Positions 3,732 through 20,802 of a DNA stretch of 64,000 bases are shown here, piece after piece. Source of the DNA: a virus. Every line of letters begins with the position of its first letter. The stretch's first letter is position 1. A program made the translations under genes and the position numbers. The notes below the pieces were generated by a model. It did no database searches, was not told where the DNA came from, and worked only from the letters and a program-made list of their open reading frames with translations. The stretch spans positions 123,140 to 187,139 of IMG/VR virus record IMGVR_UViG_3300050821_017570; one strand, 5' to 3'.

Positions 3732-3752
3732 CGGTAGGGCCAATCGATACGG

Positions 3753-4103: not shown

Positions 4104-4109
4104 CGAATC

Positions 4110-4129
4110 CTCCTCTGGTTGACAGAATC
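4110..4129 (-). promoter_or_regulatory. shortened variant of the hairpin-SD cassette
   Basis: GAT TCTG TCAAC CAGA GGAG; 4-bp stem, 2 nt shorter than the consensus. Confidence 0.5.
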
Positions 4130-4144
4130 ATAGGGCCGGCGCTC

Positions 4145-4880: not shown

Positions 4881-4889
4881 GTTGGCTCC

Positions 4890-5949: not shown

Positions 5950-6254
5950 TACGGCTCCTCTTGGTAGGACCAGTCGCCATGGATGGCGTAGTGGTGTGAT
6001 TGGTAGGTGAACGTCAGTACCTGACTCGTCTCATGTACATCTGTGGCTCCGTGGAGCACCGCTGTATCGACTCCATTGGTCATCAGATGCACCGCATAGT
6101 GCTTGGTTGAGGGATGAAGATCCTGCCAAACCATCAGACTGAGGACAACAAACATGAACAAGAGCAGAACGATCCCAAACGAGTGCTCCTCAACCAGCAT
6201 GGCGAACCGTCGATAGCGGTCACCCGGCAGGGTGTTGTCTTCCGGCTCAGGCAC
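5949..6254 (-). CDS. single-pass membrane protein
   Basis: Hydrophobic stretch FGIVLLLFMFVVLSLMVW. Confidence 0.65.
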   Translation of the reverse strand: MPEPEDNTLPGDRYRRFAMLVEEHSFGIVLLLFMFVVLSLMVWQDLHPSTKHYAVHLMTNGVDTAVLHGATDVHETSQVLTFTYQSHHYAIHGDWSYQEEP

Positions 6255-6897: not shown

Positions 6898-6902
6898 GGG
6901 TG

Positions 6903-6924
6903 CTCCTCGGACTGTGTCCGAATC
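6903..6924 (-). promoter_or_regulatory. hairpin-SD cassette
   Basis: GAT TCGGAC ACA GTCCGA GGAG. Confidence 0.8.
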
Positions 6925-6932
6925 AATGGTGG

Positions 6933-7088
6933 TCAACGGGTTGCAACGATGATGCCGCCGGCCGACACCAGGAGACGGTACTTACCGTCCCGTGGTGGCA
7001 GCACAGGGGGGACGGCGGGCGGTTGCCTCGGGTGCTGACGCGCTTCGAGTGCTGCCTTCTCACGCCGGACAATCTCATCCAGATTCAT
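6933..7088 (-). CDS. small hypothetical protein, 51 aa
   Basis: ATGA overlap with the upstream gene; MNLDEIVRREKAALEARQHP...IVATR*. Confidence 0.55.
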   Translation of the reverse strand: MNLDEIVRREKAALEARQHPRQPPAVPPVLPPRDGKYRLLVSAGGIIVATR

Positions 7089-7939
7089 GATGGTTCCTTT
7101 TGGACGTTCTCCAACTTCAGACGTTTCAATTCACGATGGTTGAGGGCCTGCTTGCGATAGGCGCGCCAACCCTTCCCCGCGCACAGAACCTCGTGTGCCT
7201 CTATCGGTCGGCCGAAGCCACCGCCGTCGCTGCCATAGAGGACTTGTTCGGCATCCCAGCTCTGGCAGAGCTGACCGATGATGCTGTACCGGCGCACCAG
7301 CAGATCCTCATAGATGCTCGGCTCGCCGGGTTCGAGATACACGTGGTACCAGGTTCCGTTGATCCGATGGATCTCAATCGTGGGGTCATCGGTTGGTCTC
7401 CGCACGGCCAGGATTCGGGCTGCCCGTACGGCCTGCCAGTCCTGTTGGGCCTTCGGCTTGCGCCGGTACCGACAGATCCGTCGGCTGCTTGGGTGGACGT
7501 AGTACTCGGTTCGGGCCCATCCCTGGCCAGCCGGCTCCCACTTGCCACTGTACCCGCACACCTCCAGCTGGGATCCGTTCATGCGGGTCTTGATGTCGAT
7601 GAAGTCGCCTAGATGCTGGTGAACGTGCTTCTCGATCGTCGTGCCGGTCGGTGAGACCTGCTGGCAGAGTTCGCTGTAGAAGCGATCCCAGGAGCGACCG
7701 AGGTTCTTGTGGATCAGGCCGCGAAGCGCGCCCAGATTCTCGCTGAATCGGCGCTTCTCGTCCCACAGGAACCGTTTGGTGAACGACTCGTGGCGTGGTT
7801 CGAACTCCATCTCGCCATAGTCCTCCCGGTCTTCCGGGTTACGGCTACGGTGGGACTTCTTCCAACCCTTCGGATACCCGGAGTCACGGGGGCCGCGACG
7901 GGCATCCTCGCAAATCACCTTTTTCAGATCCGATCGCAT
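7085..7939 (-). CDS. conserved hypothetical protein (ENLxxLR...GRxWDxxYSE...HVxQHL family)
   Basis: The pattern MRxDLxKVIxE...FSENLGALR...GRSWDRFYSELC...HVHQHL...YVHP is recognised from memory as a recurring bacterial/phage family of unknown function. Confidence 0.7.
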   Translation of the reverse strand: MRSDLKKVICEDARRGPRDSGYPKGWKKSHRSRNPEDREDYGEMEFEPRHESFTKRFLWDEKRRFSENLGALRGLIHKNLGRSWDRFYSELCQQVSPTGTTIEKHVHQHLGDFIDIKTRMNGSQLEVCGYSGKWEPAGQGWARTEYYVHPSSRRICRYRRKPKAQQDWQAVRAARILAVRRPTDDPTIEIHRINGTWYHVYLEPGEPSIYEDLLVRRYSIIGQLCQSWDAEQVLYGSDGGGFGRPIEAHEVLCAGKGWRAYRKQALNHRELKRLKLENVQKEPS

Positions 7940-7960
7940 TGGGTATACTTTACCTGAGGG

Positions 7961-8218
7961 TTAGAACTGAACTTCCCTGATACGTGAGATGGGTACGCGC
8001 TTGTCTTTCACAGGGTCGAATGGACGCCAGTAGTACATCCACATCTCTGCTACGGATGAGTTGGAACCCATCGACACCGTGATGTCTCGGGCTTGTACTT
8101 CCGTATCGTGCATGACTTTGTCGGCTGCGCGTTGGATGATTGCCATCGCTTCCTTATAGTCAATGTCACTGAGTTCTCCCTCCTCTATCACTAAAACCGA
8201 ATCCTTTACATACTTCAT
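7961..8218 (-). CDS. hypothetical protein
   Basis: 85-aa ORF with a CAGGAG SD. Confidence 0.7.
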   Translation of the reverse strand: MKYVKDSVLVIEEGELSDIDYKEAMAIIQRAADKVMHDTEVQARDITVSMGSNSSVAEMWMYYWRPFDPVKDKRVPISRIREVQF

Positions 8219-8240
8219 AGATTCTCCTGCAGATGGTGGG

Positions 8241-8492
8241 TTAAGGCTTCGTCAACTCTTGAACTTTTCGGGCAAGCGGACCGATCTCTGGATCAAGGCC
8301 GACTATGCTGCGAAGCGTACGATCCGCTAGCTTGCGAGCGGCTTCCTTGAGGTCCATTTGCTTATTTGCTTCGACCTCAAGCTGCTTGATTTGTGCCTTG
8401 GTATACGCGTGATTCCTTTCTAAAAGTGGAGGGGCCAGATGGAGTCGCACACACCAGAGGTCAGGCCTAGTGGGCCCAGACCTCACACCCAC
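8241..8492 (-). CDS. hypothetical protein
   Basis: ORF track; start uncertain. Confidence 0.5.
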   Translation of the reverse strand: MGVRSGPTRPDLWCVRLHLAPPLLERNHAYTKAQIKQLEVEANKQMDLKEAARKLADRTLRSIVGLDPEIGPLARKVQELTKP

Positions 8493-8567
8493 GTACCGTT
8501 TGCCCGCTAGGGACCGTTACGTGTTCTGGGAAGCCCCATGATCCCCCTCACGTGAGTGGGATGAATG

Positions 8568-9230
8568 CTATTGCGGAAGCGCGATCAGCTTGAATTCGCT
8601 ATTCGGAATCAGCTGGTCCTTCGTCTTGTCGATCGGCTGGTAGCGGGCTACCGTCTTCCCGGGCCGGCTGACCGCGAAGTCCAGCAGCTGGTCCATCGTC
8701 TCCGCCACCGTCGCGAGATTCGAGAACTCCAGGATGCTGTTGTAGCAGAACCAGTCACTGATGATCTCGCCATGCAGGCCGGCCTCGGATCCCTGCTTGG
8801 TCACGATGCGGACGCAGGTCGCCTTGATCAGCGGAGCATCATCGATCGTATCGGTGATGAACCGGTAGCCCAACCGGCCATGCTTGGCCCACACGGGCAG
8901 CTTGCGCACCAGGAGGGACCGCAGGAAGCAGTAGGGGGTGAGGCCACAATCCAGGTCGAGCGACACGTCGAAATACGTGCACCCGGCGGCCGGATTGGTT
9001 GGCACGACCGGCAAGATGGTACGCTGAAACAGGTTGCGGAAGTTGGCGCCACGGTAGCCGGACCCCTGCTTGATGAACGCCCCATTGATGATGGGTCGCT
9101 GGTCGAACAGCCGGACCCCATGGGGGCCGAGATTCATCGTCAGATCGAATGCCTTGGTCAGACGGGTCTGAAGGGTCAGTTGGTTGGCACTCGGCTTGAT
9201 CGCCACGTTGGTTGATTGGGTAGGGGTCAT
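8568..9230 (-). CDS. hypothetical protein
   Basis: 220-aa ORF with an ATGA overlap upstream. Confidence 0.7.
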   Translation of the reverse strand: MTPTQSTNVAIKPSANQLTLQTRLTKAFDLTMNLGPHGVRLFDQRPIINGAFIKQGSGYRGANFRNLFQRTILPVVPTNPAAGCTYFDVSLDLDCGLTPYCFLRSLLVRKLPVWAKHGRLGYRFITDTIDDAPLIKATCVRIVTKQGSEAGLHGEIISDWFCYNSILEFSNLATVAETMDQLLDFAVSRPGKTVARYQPIDKTKDQLIPNSEFKLIALPQ

Positions 9231-9472
9231 GAGAGAACCTGATAGTAGGTAGAGGTGCGGCCACGAAAGCTGTGGCGGATACGCAGGAGTTGATCCGTTT
9301 GGACCAACTGGTTCAGAATGTGAGCGAGATCGACATAGTCGATCAGATCGTCGGCACCATCATAGGGCTGGTAGGCCCGTACGGTGATCGTGCCGACTAA
9401 TTCATGCTCCTCGACCCCATCGGAGTCACAGAGCACATCGAGAACCAGCCTGGCTAGTTCGTTATGCGTCAT
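9227..9472 (-). CDS. small hypothetical protein, possibly winged-helix-like
   Basis: 81-aa ORF with a GGAG SD; helix-helix-strand pattern. Confidence 0.6.
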   Translation of the reverse strand: MTHNELARLVLDVLCDSDGVEEHELVGTITVRAYQPYDGADDLIDYVDLAHILNQLVQTDQLLRIRHSFRGRTSTYYQVLS

Positions 9473-9493
9473 ACTGACTCCAATGGGTAAGGA

Positions 9494-9718
9494 TCAGGCT
9501 ACCTTTTTGATTGGCAAACGTCTGCGCCGTTTTGGTGGCGGGTCACCCATCATCTCGGGTGGTCGAACACCCTTGTAGCGGGGCAGATGTGGGCACCAGA
9601 GTGGCAGGATGATGCGGTCCTGTACCGCTCCGTTGACGATGAACGGATGGATCTCTGGCATGACCTTTTTAGGCCACGGAGGGATCCGGCCGTTTTCATC
9701 ACGCTGAATGATAGCCAT
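9494..9718 (-). CDS. hypothetical protein
   Basis: 74-aa ORF with a basic C-terminus. Confidence 0.55.
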   Translation of the reverse strand: MAIIQRDENGRIPPWPKKVMPEIHPFIVNGAVQDRIILPLWCPHLPRYKGVRPPEMMGDPPPKRRRRLPIKKVA

Positions 9719-9723
9719 CTGGA

Positions 9724-10050
9724 TTATTTCTTGTCAATCGTTTGGATGAAGAACTTGATCTTGAGCAGCAGCTCTTCGAGCGTGTCAGCCCTGAATTCCT
9801 GCTCGCCAGATGTTTCACCATTCTTGAATTTGACCGACCCGCTGACCGATGGTTTCCCATCATGCATGTAGATGAACATGTAGATGCGTTCCACATGTCG
9901 GGATCCGAACGGATCATTGAAAGGCGTGATCGCCTTGGCCTCTGGCGCCGCTCGGGCTGGCTCCGGCTTGGTTCGTGCCGGTTCCGCCTGAGGGGTGATC
10001 ACCCGGAGGGTCTGCATGCCAGCATCAAACAATCGCGCAAGTGCGCTCAT
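9724..10050 (-). CDS. hypothetical protein
   Basis: Start at MSALARL, overlapping the upstream stop codon. Confidence 0.7.
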   Translation of the reverse strand: MSALARLFDAGMQTLRVITPQAEPARTKPEPARAAPEAKAITPFNDPFGSRHVERIYMFIYMHDGKPSVSGSVKFKNGETSGEQEFRADTLEELLLKIKFFIQTIDKK

Positions 10051-10361
10051 AGTGGACCTTTGGCTTCGACCGGCAGGTCTTCCGTAGCGATGAAGATCAG
10101 ATGATCCCCAGGCTCCAGAAGGTCTTGTCGCAGGTCTTGTAGACCCCATCGCTTCATCACCGTCAGTACCAGCTCCTTATTACGCCAGACCTCTATGATA
10201 CCGGATACCGCGTAGGGGACCCGGTAGCGATAGAAGTCATCCAGCGTGGTTGGGTTGGCAACACGAAACTCTTTCCGATACGCGTGGCCGTTTGGGCCTG
10301 CCCAGGTCAGCCAAACCGACATCCTGGGCAGGCCAAACAACCTCAACAGCCATCTAACCAT
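10047..10361 (-). CDS. hypothetical protein
   Basis: 104-aa ORF. Confidence 0.65.
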   Translation of the reverse strand: MVRWLLRLFGLPRMSVWLTWAGPNGHAYRKEFRVANPTTLDDFYRYRVPYAVSGIIEVWRNKELVLTVMKRWGLQDLRQDLLEPGDHLIFIATEDLPVEAKGPL

Positions 10362-10370
10362 GTGGCTGAA

Positions 10371-10844
10371 TTACGGCTTCACCGGCGTGGACTTCATCTC
10401 CTCGTCGATCGCCGCCACCATCGCCTCACCGGCCGTCTCGGGCACCGCTTGGGCCCGAGCCAACAGGCTGGCGAACCTCTCCACGTCACTGCGATCCACC
10501 TTCTCGACCGGAACCTCCGTCATCGGCTCGGTGACGGCCGCCTGATCGGTCGGATACTCCTCCTGGACCGCATCGATGGCCGCAATCGGAGAACCCGACG
10601 GTAGAGCCGATGGGTTGGTCGGAGTGGTGTCGTGCTGACCGATCAGTCGGCGGATCCGGCCCATCAGCCAGAACCCGACCGCCAGCCCGGCCACCAGCGT
10701 GATAAGGGCCAGTCGGGGGTGCCAGGGGTGGTGCAGGTTGTGAGCGAGCCAGCAGGTCACTAAGACGCTGCCAAACCCCTCAATGATCAGACAGTGCATA
10801 AGCACGATCAGACGCATCATGTCGGCAACGGGATTGCGGCTCAT
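10371..10844 (-). CDS. two-TM membrane protein
   Basis: Two hydrophobic helices and an acidic C-terminus. Confidence 0.7.
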   Translation of the reverse strand: MSRNPVADMMRLIVLMHCLIIEGFGSVLVTCWLAHNLHHPWHPRLALITLVAGLAVGFWLMGRIRRLIGQHDTTPTNPSALPSGSPIAAIDAVQEEYPTDQAAVTEPMTEVPVEKVDRSDVERFASLLARAQAVPETAGEAMVAAIDEEMKSTPVKP

Positions 10845-11125
10845 CGGGTCACCCGCGCCTTCTCGCGCGTCGTCAGTCGGGCCAGCTGGTTGGCCTGACC
10901 CAGCAGCTCGGTGACCTTCTCGTGGCGACCCAGCAGGTGGGCCTTACGGGCCTCGGTCAGGCAGTGGGCACGAGTGCCCCACGACTGACCGGGCTTCTGG
11001 GGCCCCTCGGCGAGCGCACGACGCGCGTGGCGTCCCGCCTCGTCGGTCTTCTGGGCCGCTTGGGCGGCGGCCCGACGGCGCATGTGGCCGTCACCGATCG
11101 GAATCTTCGTCGCATGTGCAGGCAT
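10841..11125 (-). CDS. hypothetical protein
   Basis: 94-aa ORF following a hairpin-SD cassette. Confidence 0.7.
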   Translation of the reverse strand: MPAHATKIPIGDGHMRRRAAAQAAQKTDEAGRHARRALAEGPQKPGQSWGTRAHCLTEARKAHLLGRHEKVTELLGQANQLARLTTREKARVTR

Positions 11126-11131
11126 AGTGGT

Positions 11132-11153
11132 CTCCTCCAGGGTTTCTGGAATC
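11132..11153 (-). promoter_or_regulatory. hairpin-SD cassette (5 of 6 pairs)
   Basis: GAT TCCAGA AAC CCTGGA GGAG. Confidence 0.7.
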
Positions 11154-11185
11154 TGTATGGTGGGTAGGAACGAAACCGAAACCGA

Positions 11186-11791
11186 CTACGACAACCCCAG
11201 CCGACGCAGCTGGTCGTCGAGATCCTCATGACCCACGATGAGCTTCCACGCCGCCATCTCGGCGCGGATCTCCGCTGGCGTCGCGACCCGCAGGTCGGAA
11301 TCCTGGCTCAGATAGCAGTCTTCGTTCAGCACATGGTCGTCCTGACGGTAGATCACATGGGCATCGTCGTCTTCGGTCCTAGAGACGATGACGAGACGAT
11401 CGTCCGAGAAGTCGACCAGACCGACCGAGCCGGCATCCTCGACGATGTAGGCCTGACCGACGGCGAAACTGAACGGGTGGTCGGTCTCGTCCTCGGTGTC
11501 GTCGTCATCGAGCTTCAGCTTCAGGGCGTCGACCTCGACGTCCATGAGGTTGGCGATCAGATGGACGATCGCCTTCTTGTGACCGCTGTCACCGAAATGG
11601 GCCTCGATGAGCCCACCCATTCGCTCGGCCCGTCGGGCCGGGCTACCGGCGGCAGCCGGCTTCGCGGCCTTGGCCGGCTTGGGAGCCGCGGCTGCCGCCA
11701 TCTTTCGTATCAGGGCGGCGTTGAGACGAAGTGCGGTCTTCTGGATGGCGGTGATCTGGGTCAGCTTGGTGGGAATGTCAAGATTTGGCAT
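11186..11791 (-). CDS. hypothetical protein with an Ala/Lys linker and acidic C-terminal domain
   Basis: Start at MPNLDI; the track start at 11944 overlaps another gene. Confidence 0.7.
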   Translation of the reverse strand: MPNLDIPTKLTQITAIQKTALRLNAALIRKMAAAAAPKPAKAAKPAAAGSPARRAERMGGLIEAHFGDSGHKKAIVHLIANLMDVEVDALKLKLDDDDTEDETDHPFSFAVGQAYIVEDAGSVGLVDFSDDRLVIVSRTEDDDAHVIYRQDDHVLNEDCYLSQDSDLRVATPAEIRAEMAAWKLIVGHEDLDDQLRRLGLS

Positions 11792-11853
11792 AGTAGGATT
11801 CCGTTTCCGACAACGTCGGGGTTGGGTTGGTAGGTGATGAAAACAACAGCAGG

Positions 11854-12099
11854 CTATCTGGGTAGACGCCACCCATGTTTGCCAAAGCCAGTCAGGCAAA
11901 ACACAAAGGCGAGCCCGATTGGGCCAAATACACTGAATATGCACGAGAACACCAACCAGTAACCAATTCGGCTACGGTTGGTACCCTCGGCCTGTTTGGC
12001 TTCGAAAAATGCCCAGAGTAGACCGAGAATGCCCCAAGAGCATCCGACCCACACAAGGTATTCGCTCAGCACAACCAGGAAGTGGTGATCGATCAACAT
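11854..12099 (-). CDS. two-TM membrane protein
   Basis: Hydrophobic helices; 81 aa. Confidence 0.65.
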   Translation of the reverse strand: MLIDHHFLVVLSEYLVWVGCSWGILGLLWAFFEAKQAEGTNRSRIGYWLVFSCIFSVFGPIGLAFVFCLTGFGKHGWRLPR

Positions 12100-12120
12100 G
12101 TTGGATTACCGCCTAGCCCG

Positions 12121-12765
12121 TCAGGGTAACTGGCACCCCAGCAGGACTCCGAACAGCTCCTTGGCCTTCTGCTGCTGGCAGCCAAACGCACCAGGGTTCT
12201 TCTCGAACCACTCGTACACTTCTCGGGCCTTCGGATGGCTACGGTTGAGACGCGCCAGCATCTCCTCACGGTCCCGCTTGGCCTTCTCTGCCGCTGCGGC
12301 TGCCTCACGGGCGGCCTTCTCGATGGCCTCGACACCCGCTCGATTGAACGCACGACGGAATCGCGGGTTGGTCATCAGACGGTCACGGCGAGCCTGATTG
12401 GGGACCTGATGGAGCCGAAAGATCAGCTTCACCAGTCGGGTCGCGGCAGCGAAGTCATCACGGCGGAACCATGGCCAGCTGTACTCGCCTGACCAGGCAG
12501 GCGCGTAGCCGTAGGCGAGAGTCGCCGCGTCCACCCGGTCGGCGTAGACGTTGATGATTGGCGAGGCACAGTATTCGGATTCCGTCCGCTTGAGAATCTC
12601 CAGGTAGCTCGCGCAAACCTTGCTACGAAGGCCATCGGGGAATTCGACGACATCGAATTCGGCCAGACAGGTCAGTTCATGGATGTTGGAAACATTCCAG
12701 GTACGCACGGTGGGTCCTTTATCTGAAGAGAAGAGGTGGAAAAAACGACGCAGTGGCGACCACAT
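12121..12765 (-). CDS. hypothetical protein, paralog of 14876..15343
   Basis: Shares AYGYA..W...R.D.AA.TR.VK..F and AR..E..E..PGA.GC. Confidence 0.75.
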   Translation of the reverse strand: MWSPLRRFFHLFSSDKGPTVRTWNVSNIHELTCLAEFDVVEFPDGLRSKVCASYLEILKRTESEYCASPIINVYADRVDAATLAYGYAPAWSGEYSWPWFRRDDFAAATRLVKLIFRLHQVPNQARRDRLMTNPRFRRAFNRAGVEAIEKAAREAAAAAEKAKRDREEMLARLNRSHPKAREVYEWFEKNPGAFGCQQQKAKELFGVLLGCQLP

Positions 12766-12771
12766 GACTGG

Positions 12772-13098
12772 TCAAACCAGACAGTGGATGACCCACAGGA
12801 TCATCATCGTCATGAGCGGTGTGAATATCGCGTACGCCACCACGAAGGCATACTCGTTGTCCTGCTTCGGCGTCACTGGGGCTGGCCAGATCATGCCGAT
12901 GAGGATACGCAGCAGGATCGCCTGCTTGAAGCTCAGCATGGGAAGCGCGAACGGCAGGAGCGGCATGAACCACTCCCACGCCTTGAACGTCAGCAGCCCC
13001 CACAGGAGGACTGAAAACGGCATCATCAGAAAGATCAAGCACATCAGGCCGATTGCTGACATGAGCTTGTCGAACGAATCGGTAGAATGGTCAGACAT
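12772..13098 (-). CDS. multi-pass membrane protein
   Basis: Three hydrophobic helices and a WEWF-P motif; follows a hairpin-SD cassette. Confidence 0.75.
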   Translation of the reverse strand: MSDHSTDSFDKLMSAIGLMCLIFLMMPFSVLLWGLLTFKAWEWFMPLLPFALPMLSFKQAILLRILIGMIWPAPVTPKQDNEYAFVVAYAIFTPLMTMMILWVIHCLV

Positions 13099-13104
13099 TT
13101 GAAT

Positions 13105-13126
13105 CTCCTCTGGCGGTGCCAGAATT
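13105..13126 (-). promoter_or_regulatory. hairpin-SD cassette
   Basis: AAT TCTGGC ACC GCCAGA GGAG. Confidence 0.8.
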
Positions 13127-13151
13127 GGTTGGTTGGGTGGATTGAAGCCTA

Positions 13152-13520
13152 CTACCGCACGGTCTCGAAACGGGTCGCCAGAAACCGATCGGACGGCTTC
13201 TCGACGAACCGTATGACGTCACGATCCACGAACCTGGCGAAGCGCCAACTGTCCTTGGTCAGCGCGACCCGGTATTCCTCAGCCTGCGCGGTATCGGCAT
13301 GCAGGGGAACCAGGATGACGCGCACCCGACGGGTCGGATGCTCCGGAGTCGACTCGATCAGATGGAATCGGGCGGCGAAACGGATCCGACGGTTTCCGAT
13401 GAGGGAGCGATCGAGATCCAGCATCAGAAGACCAGCGGAGTAGGGGCCGAAAAACTGCCGGAACAGTCGTTCGGCCTCTTCGCGCGAAATCAGGTTGAGG
13501 GGTTGGGTATCGGTTGGCAC
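13152..13520 (-). CDS. hypothetical protein
   Basis: GTG start 6 nt after the cassette GGAG. Confidence 0.7.
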   Translation of the reverse strand: MPTDTQPLNLISREEAERLFRQFFGPYSAGLLMLDLDRSLIGNRRIRFAARFHLIESTPEHPTRRVRVILVPLHADTAQAEEYRVALTKDSWRFARFVDRDVIRFVEKPSDRFLATRFETVR

Positions 13521-13526
13521 GGAAGC

Positions 13527-13548
13527 CTCCTCTGGCTGAGCCAGAATC
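13527..13548 (-). promoter_or_regulatory. hairpin-SD cassette
   Basis: GAT TCTGGC TCA GCCAGA GGAG. Confidence 0.8.
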
Positions 13549-13561
13549 ATAGGTTGGTTGG

Positions 13562-13768
13562 TTATCCTTCTTCGTAGTCGGGACACTTCTGGGCCTGCTC
13601 CATCTTCACGGACAGCTCGACCCGTACGTCATTTTCAGACGTTGACAGCTCCCAATGCCGTTTTAGGCAGGTGATTGAGCTGTCCATGCCAGGCGTGACA
13701 TCTGAGTATCCCGCATACCCGAGGTCTACCTGACAATGCCGACACTTGAGGCAATGGTGTTCGCTCAT
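13562..13768 (-). CDS. small Cys-rich, putatively Zn-binding protein
   Basis: MSEHHCLKCRHC...C...C; ATGA overlap with the upstream gene. Confidence 0.65.
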   Translation of the reverse strand: MSEHHCLKCRHCQVDLGYAGYSDVTPGMDSSITCLKRHWELSTSENDVRVELSVKMEQAQKCPDYEEG

Positions 13769-14517
13769 GCGAAATATAGATCTTTTGCTATGCATTTCAT
13801 CAGATCCAATCGGCTGTGGGTACCATCTGAGCAATGACGTCCATTACGGTGCCACACGCTCTGTACAACACGATTACCGAGACGATGGCCATGCCAATAC
13901 CATTCGGATCGGCTTATGTTGTCTCGTTCCAAGTCGAGTTCCCATACGGTACCTTCACGATCCACCCAGCGGCTAGCCAACTCGATGGGCTCACCAGTCA
14001 GCCAATGGCGTGGACCAGTGGACTCGTCCTTTGTCTCCATTTCTGGTACGTTGACAAGATCGTCATCGTCCCCTGGATAGCGCTTGGTCGTACCGTCGGC
14101 ATAACGCTCTTCTATGATCTCATAGTTTGATTCACGTATCGCTACGGCGATCGGGTGCACTCCCAACAGATCCGTGGCAAGGATACGCGCCTTGCGCCCA
14201 TCCCGTGTCTGTACTGGTTTCTTTGGATCGAACGGCATCTTCTGGTCAGGTGTCTTCTGACCCGGCATCTCGACCAGAGAGATGAGGTTGTGGTGGTCCG
14301 ACTTGTTGAGAAAGGCGTGCCCATCAAGGGTCCAACTCACAGAGCTGGCACCAGAGGCGCTGAACAGAAGTCCGCACCACCGCATTCTGCTGAGTTCATG
14401 CCCCAAGGACGCGCCGGTGATAAGGGCGATGCATCCCGCCTCACCGGTGGTCCAGTACTGACCGACCTCGATTTTCAAACCGGTACCGAAATGATGTCCC
14501 ACATTGCTATCCGGCAT
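13765..14517 (-). CDS. protein with three tandem SH3-like 'TRDGR' modules
   Basis: Three similar modules of about 65 aa (..GQYWTT..; ..VQTRDGRKARI..; ..WVDREG..), each ending DG...(N/D)L. Confidence 0.75.
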   Translation of the reverse strand: MPDSNVGHHFGTGLKIEVGQYWTTGEAGCIALITGASLGHELSRMRWCGLLFSASGASSVSWTLDGHAFLNKSDHHNLISLVEMPGQKTPDQKMPFDPKKPVQTRDGRKARILATDLLGVHPIAVAIRESNYEIIEERYADGTTKRYPGDDDDLVNVPEMETKDESTGPRHWLTGEPIELASRWVDREGTVWELDLERDNISRSEWYWHGHRLGNRVVQSVWHRNGRHCSDGTHSRLDLMKCIAKDLYFA

Positions 14518-14523
14518 ACTCTG

Positions 14524-14545
14524 CTCCTCTGGCTGAGCCAGAATC
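14524..14545 (-). promoter_or_regulatory. hairpin-SD cassette
   Basis: GAT TCTGGC TCA GCCAGA GGAG. Confidence 0.8.
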
Positions 14546-14550
14546 ATGGG

Positions 14551-14850
14551 TTAGTCGTTGGTGAGTTCGTACGTGCGAGGGTTGATACGGTAGAAGCGCA
14601 TCCAGCCGTGTTGGAGCCCACCGTACTGGTAACAGGACACCATCAGGCGATGAAAGGAGCGGCCGGCTGGGTCGGTGACCCTGAAGACCCCGATCTCGAC
14701 CAGGAAGTGCCCGAACCGCATGCTGGTGCTCTGGCAGCCTGTCTGGTCGAGATCAACCTTCGGGTCACTGATCCATTCGCGATACCGGGTGAGACAAGCG
14801 TCCAAAACCGCCACCTGGGCAGGCAGCTGGTGTTTTACAGGTTTTTCCAT
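14551..14850 (-). CDS. hypothetical protein, paralog of 15377..15673
   Basis: Shares LD...P..xLD...F.RLMV..Y...F.RI...LT. Confidence 0.75.
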   Translation of the reverse strand: MEKPVKHQLPAQVAVLDACLTRYREWISDPKVDLDQTGCQSTSMRFGHFLVEIGVFRVTDPAGRSFHRLMVSCYQYGGLQHGWMRFYRINPRTYELTND

Positions 14851-14875
14851 ACTGCCTCCCTGGGTGGCTGGGTTG

Positions 14876-15343
14876 TTAGAACTTGACGCCGAGCAACTCC
14901 TCCACCACCGCGATCACGCCGGTACGGTGGCAGCCGTAGGCGCCCGGATGGGCTTCGAGGTATTCGTGAATCCGACGCGCGTTCGCCGGCATACGGGCCA
15001 GCCGTGCGGCCTCTGCCTTGGCGGTCTCAGGCCGGTAGGCAAACAACGCCTTGACCATTCGGGTCAGAGCCGCCATATCACCCTTACGTGACTCTGGCCA
15101 AACACCATCTGGTGCGGCGTATCCGTAAGCCTCGGCGGCAAACTGACAGATCTTTCTGTCGTCGTCAGTACCGAGTATGGCCTTAATCGGTGCGCGGTTG
15201 TCATAGCCGTTGCAGTCGAGAAAACACTCGGTGACAGTCGACGTGTAGGTATCTGTCTTGTGTCGGAACTGAACCGTATCGCCCCGCTTCAGCTGCCGAC
15301 AGCGGCTGATGTTGGCGGACGTCCATGTGGTTTTTCTGGCCAT
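14876..15343 (-). CDS. hypothetical protein, paralog of 12121..12765
   Basis: AEAYGYAAPDGVWPESRKGDMAALTRMVKALF ... EAHPGAYGC. Confidence 0.75.
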   Translation of the reverse strand: MARKTTWTSANISRCRQLKRGDTVQFRHKTDTYTSTVTECFLDCNGYDNRAPIKAILGTDDDRKICQFAAEAYGYAAPDGVWPESRKGDMAALTRMVKALFAYRPETAKAEAARLARMPANARRIHEYLEAHPGAYGCHRTGVIAVVEELLGVKF

Positions 15344-15376
15344 ATAGTGGTTTCTATGGTTGGTGGTGTGGGAAGA

Positions 15377-15673
15377 TCAGATGGGGGTGAGATCGAAATT
15401 CTTCTCGATCCGAAAGAAGTGGAGACGCAACCGATCGGTTTTGTGCTCGTCACGCAGGTAGAGCGCTACCATCAGACGGTTGAACTGGTGTCCGTTACGG
15501 ACTCCATAGTCGACGAATAACTCGATGATATACTTGCGGCCGTATCCGTACGAGATCCTAACCCCGCGGAGTGCGTCGAGGTTACGTTGGGGCGTCTCGA
15601 TCGCGTGCCTGAAGAGTGTTTCTGCCTGATCGAGGTAGGCAGTCACACAGGGTATACCGGTTTGGTTTGGCAT
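15377..15673 (-). CDS. hypothetical protein, paralog of 14551..14850
   Basis: FNRLMVALY...HFFRIEKNFDLT; preceded by a half cassette ACCGCCAGAGGAG. Confidence 0.75.
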   Translation of the reverse strand: MPNQTGIPCVTAYLDQAETLFRHAIETPQRNLDALRGVRISYGYGRKYIIELFVDYGVRNGHQFNRLMVALYLRDEHKTDRLRLHFFRIEKNFDLTPI

Positions 15674-15690
15674 GTGGGCTCCTCTGGCGG

Positions 15691-15894
15691 TTATATCAGA
15701 ACCACAACGTCGAGCTGATTGGGTTGGATGGAGGCAACTCTGGCTTCCCTGACATCCGCAACCGCTCGTGCTACTTCTAGTGAGCTGAAGCGAGTCGCAT
15801 CGCGGGCCGCATCATGCCAACCACCGTCCGTCACATCATAGAAGCGAAAATGCTGAGAGTCAGGTCCGGGAAAGGGTCGGGCGACAACAAACAT
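15691..15894 (-). CDS. small protein, paralog of 18971..19192
   Basis: FY.VT.G.W/F.....AT.F..L..A.A.A. Confidence 0.7.
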   Translation of the reverse strand: MFVVARPFPGPDSQHFRFYDVTDGGWHDAARDATRFSSLEVARAVADVREARVASIQPNQLDVVVLI

Positions 15895-15899
15895 AGCGT

Positions 15900-15921
15900 C
15901 TCCTCTGACAGTGTCAGAATT
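15900..15921 (-). promoter_or_regulatory. hairpin-SD cassette
   Basis: AAT TCTGAC ACT GTCAGA GGAG. Confidence 0.8.
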
Positions 15922-15929
15922 GTTGATGG

Positions 15930-16466
15930 TTAGAAACAGATTCCGTACCAGATCGAATCCCTAGATCGGGTTGGGACCAACCCAACCAGCTCGCTAGGAA
16001 TGAATCCATAGGAGGGGTAGCAGGTTGGGTCAAATGGCGATGGCGCGCGGAACCTCGGGGTCAGTCGTACCTGAGCCACCATGTCTAAAAACTGATCGAT
16101 CGACATGTTGTCTTTGAGTCGGTTACACCGAAGACAAAGAGGTCGAAGGTTATTGATGTCATTACGACTACCGTAGGGGCATTTCGACCGTGGTACAATA
16201 TGGTCCAGGGTCATCCGCTCCCCACTGTCCGTGTAGAGACCGAAGTGCCAGAAGCCATCCTGCATGGTGGGTCGGAAATGCGTTCCCACCACGCCGCAAC
16301 CATAGCAGGTCTGACCAAGCTTGTGAAACATCCTGAGTTTCTCACGGTTCCTTTGACCGAACCCAAACATCATCCCATCGATCTGCATGGGCGTGGAGAT
16401 CTGTCCCTTTATGAGATCGAAAACAAAGCTGAGCGGATAGCGCACCTCTCCTGATGCGATCAGCAT
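15930..16466 (-). CDS. HNH endonuclease
   Basis: CYGCG ... MTLDHIVPRSK ... NDINNLRPLCLRCNRLKDN; ATG 6 nt after the cassette GGAG. Confidence 0.85.
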   Translation of the reverse strand: MLIASGEVRYPLSFVFDLIKGQISTPMQIDGMMFGFGQRNREKLRMFHKLGQTCYGCGVVGTHFRPTMQDGFWHFGLYTDSGERMTLDHIVPRSKCPYGSRNDINNLRPLCLRCNRLKDNMSIDQFLDMVAQVRLTPRFRAPSPFDPTCYPSYGFIPSELVGLVPTRSRDSIWYGICF

Positions 16467-16472
16467 GGTTAC

Positions 16473-16494
16473 CTCCTCGGGCAGCGCCCGAATC
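16473..16494 (-). promoter_or_regulatory. hairpin-SD cassette
   Basis: GAT TCGGGC GCT GCCCGA GGAG. Confidence 0.8.
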
Positions 16495-16510
16495 GTGGGT
16501 TGAAAGAAAC

Positions 16511-16654
16511 GTAACCTCAATCGCCGACGGGATTCGAACCCGTAGGGAGCACCTACGTCGTGCTATAGTGCTCCGTCGGATTTCGCCATGGGCACGTCCC
16601 ATCTTGGCTAAGCCGCGACTGCATCTGCCGTTTTGCTACAGCGATTGAGGTTAC
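16511..16654 (-). ncRNA. tRNA-Leu(UAA)-like RNA with a 25-nt anticodon insert, long variable arm, extended acceptor stem and no CCA
   Basis: Acceptor ATCGCTG/CGGCGAT; Leu-type D arm GCA-AAACGGCAGA-TGC; T arm ACGGG-TTCGAAT-CCCGT; variable stem GGAGCAC/GTGCTCC; the flanks pair for 9 more bp (GTAACCTCA/TGAGGTTAC). Confidence 0.8.
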
Positions 16655-16667
16655 AGGAAACGCTGAC

Positions 16668-16892
16668 TCAGCGGGTCGCCAGCACGACCGCTTCGGATCC
16701 GATGTAGGCGACTTCGGTCGCACCGGGGAAACAGGTACCCTGATGGGCTGCCTGGTTGATCTCCTGCTGGGAGATCTGGCGCTCGGCCTCACGCTCCGAA
16801 CACCCACGAGCCTTCATCGTGCTGGCGATGAGGGTCCGACGGATCTGCAGGGTGCGGGCGAGACGGACGGCGGCATTGGTCTGGATACGCAT
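16668..16892 (-). CDS. hypothetical protein, 74 aa
   Basis: MRIQTNAAV start 7 nt after the cassette GGAG; an in-frame upstream extension to 17054 also exists. Confidence 0.7.
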   Translation of the reverse strand: MRIQTNAAVRLARTLQIRRTLIASTMKARGCSEREAERQISQQEINQAAHQGTCFPGATEVAYIGSEAVVLATR

Positions 16893-16899
16893 GGGATGA

Positions 16900-16921
16900 C
16901 TCCTCGGGCTATGCCCGAATC
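16900..16921 (-). promoter_or_regulatory. hairpin-SD cassette
   Basis: GAT TCGGGC ATA GCCCGA GGAG. Confidence 0.8.
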
Positions 16922-17108
16922 GGTGGTGGTTGAATGAAACGAAACGAAGAACGCGTGTTTCAAGTCCCGCCGGACCAGCGATCTCCACAGCAACGGTTGC
17001 AAACTGTCGGGGCCGGCAGTGATAGTACGCCGTCACCATTTTGACTGCCACCATACGAGGGAATGGGTCGTATGGTGTCTCTCCTGGGGTTAGCCAGGGA
17101 AAACCGAA

Positions 17109-17396
17109 TCAGAACAGACGAAGGCCACGCAGGATCGAGCGCATCTCGTGCTGGCGGCGCTCCTGCTCCTGACGGATCTGCTTGGCCCGGGCCTTCTCGG
17201 CCCGCTGCATGTTCCGCAGGTTCACCATGGCGGCCACGTGGGCGGCCCTGGCCTCGTAGGCCCGAGCACCCTGCTGGTCGCCCAGCCGACGGCACTCGGC
17301 CGCCTGGCTGATCAGGTCGCGGCGTCCGTTTTCGAGACTCCCCCACATGGTAATGACGTTCTCGGGGGTCAGGGTGGAATGGTCACTGTGACTCAC
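17109..17396 (-). CDS. small coiled-coil protein
   Basis: GTG start 6 nt after the cassette GGAG. Confidence 0.7.
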   Translation of the reverse strand: MSHSDHSTLTPENVITMWGSLENGRRDLISQAAECRRLGDQQGARAYEARAAHVAAMVNLRNMQRAEKARAKQIRQEQERRQHEMRSILRGLRLF

Positions 17397-17402
17397 AAAA
17401 GC

Positions 17403-17424
17403 CTCCTCTGGCTGGGCCAGAATA
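17403..17424 (-). promoter_or_regulatory. hairpin-SD cassette
   Basis: TAT TCTGGC CCA GCCAGA GGAG. Confidence 0.8.
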
Positions 17425-17441
17425 GTGGGGTGATGGACAGC

Positions 17442-17494
17442 AAAAAGAAAAGGATCCCCCACGCGCCTGGCTCGTTAGGCCAGACACGTGGGGG
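17442..17494 (-). terminator. rho-independent terminator (RNA unit 2)
   Basis: 16-bp stem with 2 G-U pairs and loop CUAACGA, then AUCCUUUUCUUUUU. Confidence 0.8.
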
Positions 17495-17633
17495 AAGAAG
17501 AGTACGTTTGGGTTAACGGCCCCTTTCGGGGGAGTTAGTGAAACAGGCTCAGGGGGAGTCCTTGTGGACATTCCTGAACGGATTGATCCTCCTCCTTGGT
17601 AGGAATCGATGGATCGTTCTTTTGGTGGATACC

Positions 17634-17702
17634 AAAAGAAAAAGGTTGCCCACAGCCACATACCCAGCTCCCGCAACAGAGCCAGATATGGGCTGTGGGC
17701 AA
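17634..17702 (-). terminator. terminator-like long hairpin (RNA unit 1)
   Basis: 24-bp stem with 3 G-U pairs and a 1-nt bulge, followed by CCUUUUUCUUUU. Confidence 0.7.
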
Positions 17703-17784
17703 TCTTTCGTAACGGCCTTTCGGGAGTTACGTTGCGGACAGGGGGTAGTCCTTGCGAACATTCCCTGCTTATGAGATTGTGGCG

Positions 17785-18045
17785 CTACTTCGCGCGCTTG
17801 ACCGACCAGAGGCCCTGACGGACCTGATACCAGATGAAACCCGTGGGGAGTTTCGTATCAGGGTTGGTTGGTGCCCAGCAGGGTCCGACGAACCGCTCGA
17901 ACCTACCGGGTGACACTTCGGGTAACTTGACACGGTTCCAGAAACGGTGATTGACCTCGATCCATTGGATCGCCGGATCAGACTCCGCAGGAGACTGACT
18001 GCCGGAATGCGTCTGTTTTGATGATGTAGCCACGTTTGGCGACAT
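17785..18045 (-). CDS. hypothetical protein
   Basis: 86-aa ORF; weak SD. Confidence 0.5.
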   Translation of the reverse strand: MSPNVATSSKQTHSGSQSPAESDPAIQWIEVNHRFWNRVKLPEVSPGRFERFVGPCWAPTNPDTKLPTGFIWYQVRQGLWSVKRAK

Positions 18046-18298
18046 ACGATGATACTTTCTCTTTTACAATGAAGGTATTTGGAGTTCGCGGAGTTTGGGA
18101 TGTCAGCCCAACCCTCCTACCATAACCTTCAGAGCGTGTCAGATGTCGACGGAACGACATATCCCGCCGGAGGCTCGCTCTAACGTTGCGAGCTTTGTTA
18201 CCGTGGATCATGCTCCACCGCAACCATTTCACGTGCCACGAGTATCATGGCAGAGGCGCCGGCTAGCGTAACCGGACGAACCGGAGGATTACGATCCC

Positions 18299-18670
18299 TC
18301 AAACGACCGATACAGCGTACCAATGCCCTGCTTCAAAATACTCCTTCCCAATCAGTACCCACTCTGGCGGTGGGGGTTCACCGGGTGTCAGCCACCCGGC
18401 GGGAACGAATGTATCTCGTTCAAACGGCGCGATTATTGAATCGGCCTCCTGGTGCATCAGCACAACTGTGACGAGCGGGATATCGTCATCCCGCAACTCG
18501 CAATGTGCTTCGCCATATTCGGTCGAGTCTCTGCTACCGAGTTTCTGGAGAAGCAGCTGATGCAGCTCCTCCGTCCACTCCTTGCCGCCGCGCTGACGGA
18601 GCGCGGCTCTGATGTCAGCGAAGCTTTTCAAGGGGTGTCCTTTCGCAGATATAGCAGATGTAGCCCTCAC
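18299..18670 (-). CDS. hypothetical protein
   Basis: ORF track; start uncertain. Confidence 0.6.
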   Translation of the reverse strand: MRATSAISAKGHPLKSFADIRAALRQRGGKEWTEELHQLLLQKLGSRDSTEYGEAHCELRDDDIPLVTVVLMHQEADSIIAPFERDTFVPAGWLTPGEPPPPEWVLIGKEYFEAGHWYAVSVV

Positions 18671-18974
18671 GTTCCCATGTGTAGAGACCGTGAAGACACC
18701 ATATGCCGTGTGGGTGGGGATAGAACTCCTCTATCCATGGATGCTGGGGCGATACCAGCGGCTCAACGAGACAGACCCTCACCTCATCGCCGGCGAGAAT
18801 CAAATGGTGGGTCCACTTACGGAAATGGTATTCGCGAACCAAACGATTGGTTAGATTGTGGAACAAGTCCCACGCCACCGTCTGGCCAAACTGTCGAACC
18901 ATAAGGGCTCGCGCTGCATGATACCCAAGTATTGGACGGGTTGGTTGCCCCGGAATGAGGAAACCGGCCGTCAT
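18615..18974 (-). CDS. hypothetical protein with C-terminal C/H...CxxC
   Basis: 119 aa; GGAGG SD; ATGA overlap. Confidence 0.65.
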   Translation of the reverse strand: MTAGFLIPGQPTRPILGYHAARALMVRQFGQTVAWDLFHNLTNRLVREYHFRKWTHHLILAGDEVRVCLVEPLVSPQHPWIEEFYPHPHGIWCLHGLYTWEREGYICYICERTPLEKLR

Positions 18975-19192
18975 ACCTCCAACACACGCGACGCACGTGG
19001 AAATCCAGCCAGATTATCCAAATGCTTCGCTAGGGCCTCCGCATCACCGAGTTTGAGAAACTCAGTCGCCTGATGCCTGGCGCCTACGAACCGACCTACG
19101 GTAACGTTGTAGAAGACATTGTTGCCTTGAACAACGCGGCTGATGACGTACGTGGGGCTGATTCCGCTGGTGTGGTCGTATGGCTGGATCAT
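18971..19192 (-). CDS. small protein, paralog of 15691..15894
   Basis: VFYNVTVGRF....QATEFLKLGDAEALA. Confidence 0.7.
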   Translation of the reverse strand: MIQPYDHTSGISPTYVISRVVQGNNVFYNVTVGRFVGARHQATEFLKLGDAEALAKHLDNLAGFPRASRVLEV

Positions 19193-19419
19193 AAGGCCTC
19201 AATCAACGCGGTCGCATCCTCACCACGCTGGAACGCCTCGGCAATTTCGACATGCCTACATGCTTCCAACGTCCACCGTATGGCTGACTGGGCTTCGAAG
19301 TCAGCCATACGGTGATGGTTGAGAGCGACTGAGATCTGGAGGCTATCGAGTCTCTTCAACGCCATATGGGCACAATCGAGTGCTCGTTTGGCGAAGAATT
19401 CGGCATCGGGGTCTAACAT
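19189..19419 (-). CDS. hypothetical protein
   Basis: ATG 5 nt after the cassette GGAG. Confidence 0.7.
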   Translation of the reverse strand: MLDPDAEFFAKRALDCAHMALKRLDSLQISVALNHHRMADFEAQSAIRWTLEACRHVEIAEAFQRGEDATALIEAL

Positions 19420-19424
19420 CTGTT

Positions 19425-19446
19425 CTCCTCCGGCGGAGCCGGAATC
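19425..19446 (-). promoter_or_regulatory. hairpin-SD cassette
   Basis: GAT TCCGGC TCC GCCGGA GGAG. Confidence 0.8.
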
Positions 19447-19479
19447 GTCGGTGTGAGAGGGGTGAAAGGTACGAAGGAA

Positions 19480-19812
19480 TCAGATGAGTTGTTTGCCAGA
19501 CTCCTCGTCGCGGAAGTCGGTTGGCCACCATTGGAGCACGATCGGTGTGACCCACTGGGTACCGAGGAAGTCGACGGTCCAGCGGTATCGCCAGCCCTTG
19601 TAATCGCCTTGGGGGCGATATCCCTTGAGACGAACTGGTGTTTGGATCAAATCCACAACGAAAAGAAATGGCCCGCCACTGGGGGTGGTGCGCCATTCGG
19701 TGTAGGCGGCCTTGCCAAACCTCGTATACCTCTCAGTCACGAGTTTGGTCGCCAGATCACCCCGTGGGTAGGTTCTGAAGAGAAGCGCCTCCATCTCACT
19801 GTCCGTTATCAT
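19480..19812 (-). CDS. hypothetical protein
   Basis: Start at MITDSE with an AGAGGA SD; the track's N-terminal extension is an overlap artefact. Confidence 0.65.
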   Translation of the reverse strand: MITDSEMEALLFRTYPRGDLATKLVTERYTRFGKAAYTEWRTTPSGGPFLFVVDLIQTPVRLKGYRPQGDYKGWRYRWTVDFLGTQWVTPIVLQWWPTDFRDEESGKQLI

Positions 19813-19945
19813 CAGGATCCTCTTCTGTCCCGTCGTCGGACTCCTCTTCAGCTTCTTCTTCCTCCGCTTGTTTGGCAGCTTCGTATTCCGCTTCTTCTCT
19901 GGTTCGACCAAGCTGTATGAGTTGTTCGAGTAGTGTCTTCTCCAT
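19796..19945 (-). CDS. 49-aa highly acidic protein (not in the ORF track)
   Basis: MEKTLLEQLIQLGRTREEAEYEAAKQAEEEEAEEESDDGTEEDPDDNGQ*, directly after a cassette. Confidence 0.75.
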   Translation of the reverse strand: MEKTLLEQLIQLGRTREEAEYEAAKQAEEEEAEEESDDGTEEDPDDNGQ

Positions 19946-19951
19946 TGGTGC

Positions 19952-19973
19952 CTCCTCGGGCTTGGCCCGAATC
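19952..19973 (-). promoter_or_regulatory. hairpin-SD cassette
   Basis: GAT TCGGGC CAA GCCCGA GGAG. Confidence 0.8.
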
Positions 19974-19993
19974 GGGGTGATTGGGAATCATCC

Positions 19994-20020
19994 ACCTGCC
20001 GAATTGTGAGTTCGGCAGGT
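19994..20020. terminator. 10-bp intergenic hairpin
   Basis: ACCTGCCGAA-TTGTGAG-TTCGGCAGGT just after a stop codon; no U tract. Confidence 0.4.
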
Positions 20021-20028
20021 AGGGATTC

Positions 20029-20550
20029 TCAAGCGGGGATATTGAAGAGATCCAGTTCGGACTCTCCGTAGGTAGGGGAATACCTACCGTCTCGGTCGTG
20101 CTGGGTCACCTGCTCCTCTCCTGGCTTCACCATTACCAAGACAACAATCGGATAGGGTCCCACGGCGTCAAAACTCACCAAACGAACCAATCGCCCGTCC
20201 CTGGTCTGCATCGGCATCCTCAGGTCGAGAACCGGGATCTCGTTTGTATCGATCGGAGCCACCAGCTGGAGCACCGGAACGCTGGCTACGTCTGAGACAG
20301 CCACTTCCGGTGATCTACGTGGCGTCGTGGTCCGGGGCGCCAGCCCACCGAGATATCGGAGCTGGTCCGTAAACACACCCACCAGGGTGACGCTGCCGAT
20401 GATCAAAGCAGTCGCCACTTTTGGGTGGTGGTAATGGTGAAACTGCGCGAAGACGACACAGCAGAAAGCGATGACAGCAATCCAGAAGGCCGCTACCCGA
20501 GGGCTAACCCGGTAGAGGCGTGGAAGGATATTGGTCGCAGAAACTTGCAT
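20029..20550 (-). CDS. two-TM protein fused to a 'QTRDGR' module
   Basis: Two hydrophobic helices, then MQTRDGRLVRLV..D..GPYPIV...DL, similar to module 2 of 13765..14517. Confidence 0.75.
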   Translation of the reverse strand: MQVSATNILPRLYRVSPRVAAFWIAVIAFCCVVFAQFHHYHHPKVATALIIGSVTLVGVFTDQLRYLGGLAPRTTTPRRSPEVAVSDVASVPVLQLVAPIDTNEIPVLDLRMPMQTRDGRLVRLVSFDAVGPYPIVVLVMVKPGEEQVTQHDRDGRYSPTYGESELDLFNIPA

Positions 20551-20579
20551 ACGGTTCTCCTCCGGCTGGGTTGGTGGGT

Positions 20580-20802
20580 ACCCAAAAGGGCCCCAGGGGG
20601 GTCAAAACGGTATGGTGACCCATACCCACCCGGATCCATGTTCGTGAGAGCATGGAAGGGGTATCACCTATATATGCGTGTTTTAGGTGTTTTATTAAGT
20701 ACCCCCTAGGGGGGGGGGATACCCACCACTTCTGCTATGACCCCCTAACTACCACCTAGCCTAACCAGACCCATTGCCGATACTCTGGCTAGGGGGTAGC
20801 GG
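20580..20802. promoter_or_regulatory. divergent intergenic control region (possible promoters or origin)
   Basis: Strand switch; AT-rich core, 10-G run, palindrome CCCCCTAGGGGG and several inverted repeats. Confidence 0.45.

Follow-up and report, generated by a model that had tools for sequence, protein, structure and literature searches.

The gap between two small genes of a large uncultivated phage is a tandem duplication of one non-coding RNA module on the minus strand, the period being about 190 nt. Each copy places two small, internally looped hairpins (H1 and H2) ahead of a predicted intrinsic terminator. The module is real and well delimited, appears to be under selection and belongs to no known family, and its function is read here from its layout. 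It probably halts transcription twice within a long early operon, and this double stop may be regulated.

The source record is an IMG/VR phage of 187,139 nt (56.5% G+C, estimated 95% complete), of which bases 123140-187139 were analyzed; this stretch of 64,000 nt is called the window, and coordinates are those of the window unless marked as genome. The virus is a soil-type, orphan, 187-kb uncultivated phage with no close relatives. Most of its large proteins have no PHROG family, and the best match of its 441-aa structural protein, at 35% identity, was to Vibrio phages. The minus strand carries almost all genes around the locus. The gap (17397-17784, minus strand, 388 nt) extends from the TAG stop of one ORFan (17785) to the GTG start of the next (17396). 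The 86-aa product of the upstream ORFan could be assigned to no family in Pfam or PHROGs and matched only itself among 5.8e9 proteins; its gene has a weak ribosome site, and its recognition in the protein atlas was low. The 95-aa downstream protein similarly returned only itself from the protein collection, and nothing from Pfam and PADLOC. Beyond the 86-aa gene, about 250 nt between two small genes (18046-18298, minus strand) contain no convincing ORF, the sole candidate nearby (17978-18232) scoring like off-frame sequence. The features of the locus are listed in Table 1.

Table 1 Features of the tandem module and its flanks (window coordinates)
Feature	Position	Strand	Details
Upstream ORFan, 86 aa	17785..18045	-	TAG stop 17 nt before H1-A
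Repeat unit A	17587..17784	-	CAAUC, H1, H2, terminator A, tail, orphan SD cassette; global alignment
H1-A	17738..17768	-	6 bp, AAU/UACC internal loop, 4 bp, GCAA; -13.1 kcal/mol, z -3.0
H2-A	17708..17731	-	6 bp, UC/CC internal loop, 2 bp, GAAA; z -3.2
Terminator A (predicted)	17634..17707	-	25-bp hairpin 17646-17702, one bulge, AAAG/CUUU extension; tract CCUUUUUCUUUU 17634-17645; -44.8 kcal/mol
10-bp hairpin	17617..17640	-	distal U tract of terminator A pairs with ACCAAAAGA; z -4.6
Orphan degenerate hairpin-SD cassette, between units	17585..17615	-	CGAUUCCU-ACCA-AGGAGGAGG; no start codon 5-10 nt downstream
Repeat unit B	17397..17586	-	CAAUC, H1, H2, terminator B, tail, functional SD cassette; global alignment
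H1-B	17547..17579	-	7 bp, AAU/UCCC internal loop, 4 bp, ACAA; -15.5 kcal/mol, z -3.4
H2-B	17514..17537	-	4 bp, UC/CC internal loop, 4 bp, GAAA; z -2.5
Terminator B (predicted)	17442..17495	-	17-bp hairpin 17455-17495; tract CCUUUUCUUUUU 17442-17453; -36.7 kcal/mol
Functional SD cassette	17402..17428	-	CCACUAUUCUGGC-CCA-GCCAGAGGAGG; serves GTG start at 17396
Downstream ORFan, 95 aa, GTG start	17109..17396	-	coding score 0.31

Global alignment of the two units gave one order of elements: CAAUC, H1, H2, a G+C-rich hairpin followed by CCUUUU(U)CUUUU, the sequence G(G/C)U(A/G)UCC(A), and the SD cassette. A two-copy architecture on the minus strand had been described in a first-pass annotation made from the sequence alone, and all the elements that it named were found where it had placed them, including the U tract after each long hairpin and the motif UCUGGC within both. 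Two points had to be amended. The duplication, given there as two units in about 330 nt, is real, but the repeat is longer and takes in the full unit of about 190 nt with the downstream SD cassette. The GNRA loops are present as GCAA in H1-A and as GAAA in both copies of H2, but the loop of H1-B is ACAA, which is not of this type. Both copies were given an identical fold by RNAfold, with H1 and H2 together spanning 65-67 nt; the internal loop of H1 is 3x4, and that of H2 is 2x2 with an inner C-G stem of 2 or 4 bp. The small hairpins fold better than shuffled sequence (z -2.5 to -3.4), and the entire gap folds at -175 kcal/mol, with a z of -9.7 on the minus strand versus -5.6 on the plus strand. 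The H1 core was matched twice in the window against 0.15 expected, and the expectation for the H2 pattern was 0, so the motifs are not due to chance. The assignment of the structure to the minus strand is supported as well: the terminator stem of unit A includes several G-U pairs, which the plus strand would turn into A-C mismatches, and the U tracts, the GAAA and GCAA loops and the G-U pairs suit a minus-strand RNA only.

The gap is non-coding, as the first-pass annotation had held. A codon-usage score was trained on 93 long ORFs, whose in-frame windows had a mean of +0.25 and a 5th percentile of +0.02. The check for a protein-coding frame spanning the gap returned only scores like those of off-frame sequence (-0.16 to -0.19 for the ORFs that cross it), and the downstream 95-aa gene scored +0.31.

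Divergence between the two units is very unevenly distributed. H1 is identical at 25/29 positions and H2 at 20/24, together 45/53 (85%), whereas the two linkers agree at 6/14 and 7/18 positions (about 40%) and the terminator hairpin at 31/55. When H1 and H2 were compared with linkers plus terminator stems (44/87, 51%), the difference gave a Fisher p of 5e-5, a conservative value since each segment was aligned optimally. Every difference between the copies of H1 and H2 keeps the pairing. A U-G pair in the inner stem of H1 is C-G in the other copy, a CC inserted into one arm of H2 finds its partner in GG opposite and lengthens the stem, and a deletion of 1 nt on each side of H1 shifts the register of the outer stem with the 3x4 loop retained. 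The AAU/UNCC and UC/CC internal loops are kept exactly while stem lengths vary. The terminator stems have about half of their bases in common, yet pair nearly perfectly in both units. These facts suggest that H1 and H2 are under selection on structure, which had been proposed on account of the invariant loops, the variable stems and the change from U-G to C-G. The comparison of paralogues supports that proposal; because no homologue was found, the covariation evidence is confined to these two paralogues and is thus suggestive rather than decisive.

Each unit is closed by what had been taken for its own terminator, and an intrinsic-terminator-like site was confirmed on the minus strand by prediction: a U-rich tract comes directly after a stable G+C-rich hairpin, and the flanking genes run in the same direction. 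In a crude genome-wide scan, terminators A and B ranked first and third in predicted stability, A being the strongest. Both apices retain UCUGGC...GCCAGG/GCUGGG, which resembles the stem of the cassette hairpin. Seven strong terminators have in common the tail UUUU(U)[GA][CG]U[AG]UC immediately behind the U tract, with CUUUCUUUUUGCUAUC as the consensus; they are located at genome 14859(-), 17182(-), 45573(-), 71571(+) and 108754(-) and at 17446(-) and 17637(-) of the window. The other five lack H1-H2. Since the same tail occurs at seven sites and H1-H2 nowhere else, the terminators form a phage-wide family, whereas H1-H2 is confined to this locus. At genome 108754, the sister terminator closes a ubiquitin-like operon; its stem base is that of terminator B and its tail that of terminator A, a pattern of sharing which suggests, from sequence, spread or exchange of terminator modules. 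In genome 108745-108870 (minus strand), a stop codon, two small hairpins (of which one has a GCAA loop on a perfectly paired stem) and the terminator follow each other in a layout like that of the units, and these hairpins are unrelated in sequence to H1 and H2. The 10-bp hairpin, which had been likened to an antiterminator, does exist, but it is not a classical antiterminator, because the competing strand lies 3' of the U tract and the hairpin forms after the termination decision. No complement of the ACCAAAAGA type occurs at the sister terminator at genome position 108754.

The hairpin-SD cassette which ends each unit is a recurrent element with the shared form CCAnCnAUUC-hairpin-GAGGAGG. 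Ten clean copies were found on the minus strand, at 6921, 13123, 13545, 14542, 15918, 16491, 16918, 17421, 19443 and 19970. Ahead of the cassette, a 6-3-6 hairpin with GGAG, there is always a tract of some 15-20 nt, poor in G and rich in A/C, with (G/A/T)AU as its last letters; the stems of the cassette covary (UCUGGC, UCGGGC, UCCGGC, UCUGAC, UCGGAC). The cassette resembles a 5'-UTR signal at the RNA level more than it does a promoter. The cassette between the units is degenerate and has no start codon, and thus is an orphan left over from the duplication; its run of purines can form pairs either with UCUUCUUCC, which precedes terminator B, or with the U tract of that terminator. The module lies within a long series of small co-directional genes. 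Cassette-led genes are present on both sides of it, upstream at 19970 and 19443 and downstream at 17421, 16918, 16491 and on to 6921, and no other strong terminator was found on the minus strand in 1-20000. The only AT-rich stretch nearby, at about 20660-20720 between divergent genes, is likely an early promoter region, and the module lies about 3 kb downstream of it. The 47 nt from terminator B to the next start codon gave no sigma-70-like match, in a scan which performed at chance level everywhere.

The module was searched for in several collections. With the 4227 models of Rfam at gathering thresholds, only a tRNA-Met elsewhere in the window was returned, and at E <= 10 the gap gave only junk: microRNA models on the terminator hairpin alone, the best being mir-1540 (22.8 bits against a gathering threshold of 90), and one CRISPR repeat model on the wrong strand. 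This agrees with the first reading, in which no known riboswitch or ribozyme had been recognized. A blastn search of the gap against 50,697 phage records gave no match. Pattern scans of IMG/VR with the H1 core, a strict H1, H2 and the SD cassette yielded only chance or coding matches: more than 110 random matches to the H1 core were screened and none was real, and a flexible H1 pattern matched a terminase-like coding sequence and no homologue. In 185,579 prokaryote genomes the combined H1+H2 pattern found only chance matches in coding sequence, and in the metagenome collection it found only one contig, L119 (Ga0210386_10026632). This contig comes from the same phage, and its sequence agrees at every position between 17330 and 20718. 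It differs from the record at 20719-20797, where an 80-nt intergenic patch has 17 substitutions and a 3-nt indel; the rest of the 4.5 kb is identical. The patch adjoins a C-run/G-run palindrome and the AT-rich probable promoter region. Within the phage, a structure-descriptor scan and a covariance model found only units A and B. The flanking proteins and an 821-aa neighbor had no relatives but themselves in IMG/VR and the 5.8e9-protein collection, and Pfam, PHROGs, PADLOC and ESM Atlas gave no lead to a function for the neighboring proteins. A search for exact complements showed no antisense target common to both units in the phage genome, all matches being at chance level.

By analogy with phage nut and put sites, we tentatively read H1-H2 as a cis-acting site which may bind a protein or RNA polymerase and thereby set the read-through of the terminators. 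The two terminators would form a checkpoint between a first early block (20550 to 17785) and a later one (17396 to about 6900). On the nascent RNA, H1-H2 would be bound by a protein of the phage or the host, or directly by RNA polymerase, and this binding would decide whether the adjacent terminator is read through. The duplication would tighten the stop when the binding factor is absent, and two stable terminator-ended RNAs of about 140 nt could arise as a by-product. With cassette-led genes on both sides of the module and no other strong minus-strand terminator in 1-20000, the operon layout fits such a checkpoint, and it is compatible with the original suggestion that the units gate the downstream cluster. 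Furthermore, the hairpins and their internal loops are conserved and the linkers are not, and the units share no antisense target; binding by a protein or the polymerase thus fits better than a base-pairing sRNA. Several observations count against control of read-through. A promoter downstream of terminator B is possible. Placed immediately ahead of its terminator, a put-like element that needs no factor would leave the terminator without a purpose. The five same-tail terminators without H1-H2, the lack of a boxA and the tetraloops weigh on the same side, and no N-like arginine-rich protein or known antiterminator was recognized among the ORFs in 17780-20560, all of which are ORFans.

Should H1-H2 indeed govern read-through, a large uncultivated phage with no database relatives would have yielded a new RNA signal that controls terminators. 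To our knowledge, only a few such signals are known, namely nut, put, EAR and the LoaP targets. The module is compact (a hairpin pair plus terminator of about 140 nt) and comes in two natural variants, so that direct in vitro tests on synthetic copies would be feasible. With inert H1 and H2, the module would be a well-built double terminator of local interest only.

Two other explanations are each rather improbable, though by no means far-fetched. According to the first, the units are two stable terminator-ended sRNAs of about 140 nt, released from a 3' UTR or by read-through, which act in trans by binding a protein, for example as a sponge or decoy. The compact structured form ending in a terminator, the sequence conservation of H1 and H2 and the cassette-stem-like sequence kept at both apices would suit this. 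Phage T4 offers a precedent in two related small stable RNAs, of a function not known, beside its tRNA genes. However, the units have no promoter in common, since their homology begins only at CAAUC, and transcription of unit B would have to pass terminator A or begin at an unseen promoter no more than 60 nt away. Moreover, a complementary target was not found in the phage and a partner protein was not identified. Two independent sRNA genes were not supported, because homology which ends at CAAUC leaves the units no promoter to share. The more specific roles once suggested, an anti-defence decoy or an antitoxin mimic, found no support: the flanking proteins give no signal in PADLOC, Pfam or PHROG, and the geometry is unlike that of type III antitoxins.

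The second, equally improbable, sees in the locus a simple double terminator that acts constitutively at an operon boundary; H1 and H2 would be generic 3'-UTR hairpins (stabilizing or exonuclease-blocking) copied along with it, and their similarity that of a recent or partly homogenized duplication. A plain double terminator agrees with the seven-member family of same-tail terminators in the phage and with the two small hairpins, of unrelated sequence, which likewise precede the terminator at genome 108754. Stem exchange, as hinted by the match of that terminator to the base of B and the tail of A, could also have inflated the divergence outside H1 and H2. The linkers, however, lie outside any terminator and are only about 40% identical against 85% in H1 and H2. 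Nor would generic hairpins be expected to keep AAU/UNCC and UC/CC exactly despite changes in stem length, and genes with the same cassette resume right after the terminators with no recognizable promoter.

It is less likely again that H1-H2 represents an undescribed class of nascent-RNA element which binds polymerase directly, as put does, or else a small ligand or a phage factor, switches the two very strong terminators and so times the change from immediate-early to delayed-early transcription in a phage lineage without sequenced relatives.

Tandem ligand-sensing riboswitches, each an aptamer with its own terminator and possibly of the 'tug-of-war' type, where stabilization of an upstream fold suppresses the terminator next to it, appear very unlikely. 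In favor of this, the internal loops are conserved and each of the two complete units has a terminator, and a closing helix can be drawn around H1 and H2 (CAAUCU/AGAUUG in unit A, GGAGGAGGA/UCUUCUUCC in unit B) with a 3' strand that shares the lowest 2-3 nt of the terminator. It has been reported that structures directly upstream of terminators can suppress termination, and that the tug-of-war mechanism requires a spacer of 0-4 nt and a terminator of moderate stability, failing with very stable ones (bioRxiv 10.64898/2026.06.17.733018). Here the spacer from the upstream fold to the terminator is 0-5 nt in unit A but about 18 nt in unit B, and the terminators, with stems of 17-25 bp, are far more stable than -16 kcal/mol. 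The closing helices of A and B are not homologous in sequence or position, and no conserved alternative pairing overlaps the terminators, which speaks against the classical riboswitch that had been offered as one possibility. Rfam provided no aptamer even at E <= 10, the motif is absent from the bacterial contigs scanned, and the downstream genes are ORFans with no metabolic theme. Finally, that the gap is a protein-coding region or a DNA-level element (an origin or protein-binding inverted repeats) is highly improbable: ORFs of 63-97 aa do cross it, an ATG stands at the equivalent place in both units and the plus strand folds well too, but indels put the units in different reading frames, the crossing ORFs traverse strong terminators with off-frame-like codon scores, the ATG has an SD 15 nt away in unit B and none in unit A, and the U tracts, GNRA-type loops and G-U pairs match minus-strand RNA alone.

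Several described RNA elements were compared with the units and rejected. Type III antitoxin RNAs consist of tandem repeats of about 34-40 nt with one terminator, followed by a gene for a ToxN-like endoribonuclease; here the repeats follow at a distance of about 190 nt, both units carry a terminator, and the 95-aa downstream protein has no match in Pfam or PADLOC. A CRISPR-repeat mimic (RNA anti-CRISPR) was also discarded, the only match being CRISPR-DR57 (E = 1.8) on the plus strand of unit B alone. At 17508-17540 (+), where this weak match lies, the plus-strand reading of H2-B ends in GUGAAAC; it is absent in unit A, and the match is thus most likely due to chance. An ANTAR dual-hexaloop target was dismissed, since the loops here have four nucleotides and the terminator lies outside them; no G-A/A-G pair follows a 3-nt bulge as in a k-turn; and the sequence differs from the 11-nt GAAA tetraloop receptor. 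CAGG(G)AAUGU resembles the SELEX consensus of CsrA, but a CsrA site was rejected with the GGA lying in stems. The NAD+-I (nadA) riboswitch is similar in having two successive bulged stem-loops and C-rich unpaired stretches (ACU(A)CCCCC here, ACANCCCC there). It requires an 8-nt ACANCCCC bulge on the 5' strand, a 7-bp P1a and a GYG internal loop (PMC7297122), whereas in H1 it is the 3' strand of the 3x4 loop that is C-rich, the inner stem has 4 bp and Rfam gave no match to this class even at E <= 10, so it was rejected too.

Three systems come closer. Like ordinary tandem intrinsic terminators, the module has G+C-rich hairpins with U tracts, co-directional with the genes and belonging to a genome-wide family with a shared tail; it differs in the sequence-conserved hairpin pair ahead of both terminators and in its position in the middle of an operon and not at its end. 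With nutL/nutR and N of phage lambda it shares the succession of gene, small hairpin with a GNRA-type loop, terminator and next early gene, the presence of two near-identical copies, and the logic of a switch from immediate-early to delayed-early genes. In contrast to lambda nut, there are two hairpins with internal loops here, and no N-like protein was recognized. A lambda boxA (CGCUCUUA-like) was not found 5' of H1, where unit A has CCACAAUCUCAUAAG and unit B GGAUCAAUCCGUU; likewise, the tetraloops GCAA, ACAA and GAAA on internally looped stems do not correspond to lambda boxB, a 5-bp stem with a GNRNA pentaloop. The put RNA of phage HK022 (putL/putR) is a processive antiterminator that requires no factor and binds the beta' zinc-binding domain of RNA polymerase. 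It is about 70 nt long, forms two bulged stem-loops and occurs in two similar copies per genome, in early transcripts and upstream of terminators (PMC9378689). H1-H2 is like it in size and form, with 65-67 nt, two internally looped hairpins and two paralogous copies. No relation in sequence was seen and no put model was matched in Rfam, and the HK022 copies lie behind two separate promoters and need no adjacent terminator, whereas those described here are in tandem. Since each H1-H2 stands directly before its own terminator, an action like that of put would be sensible here only if it is conditional.
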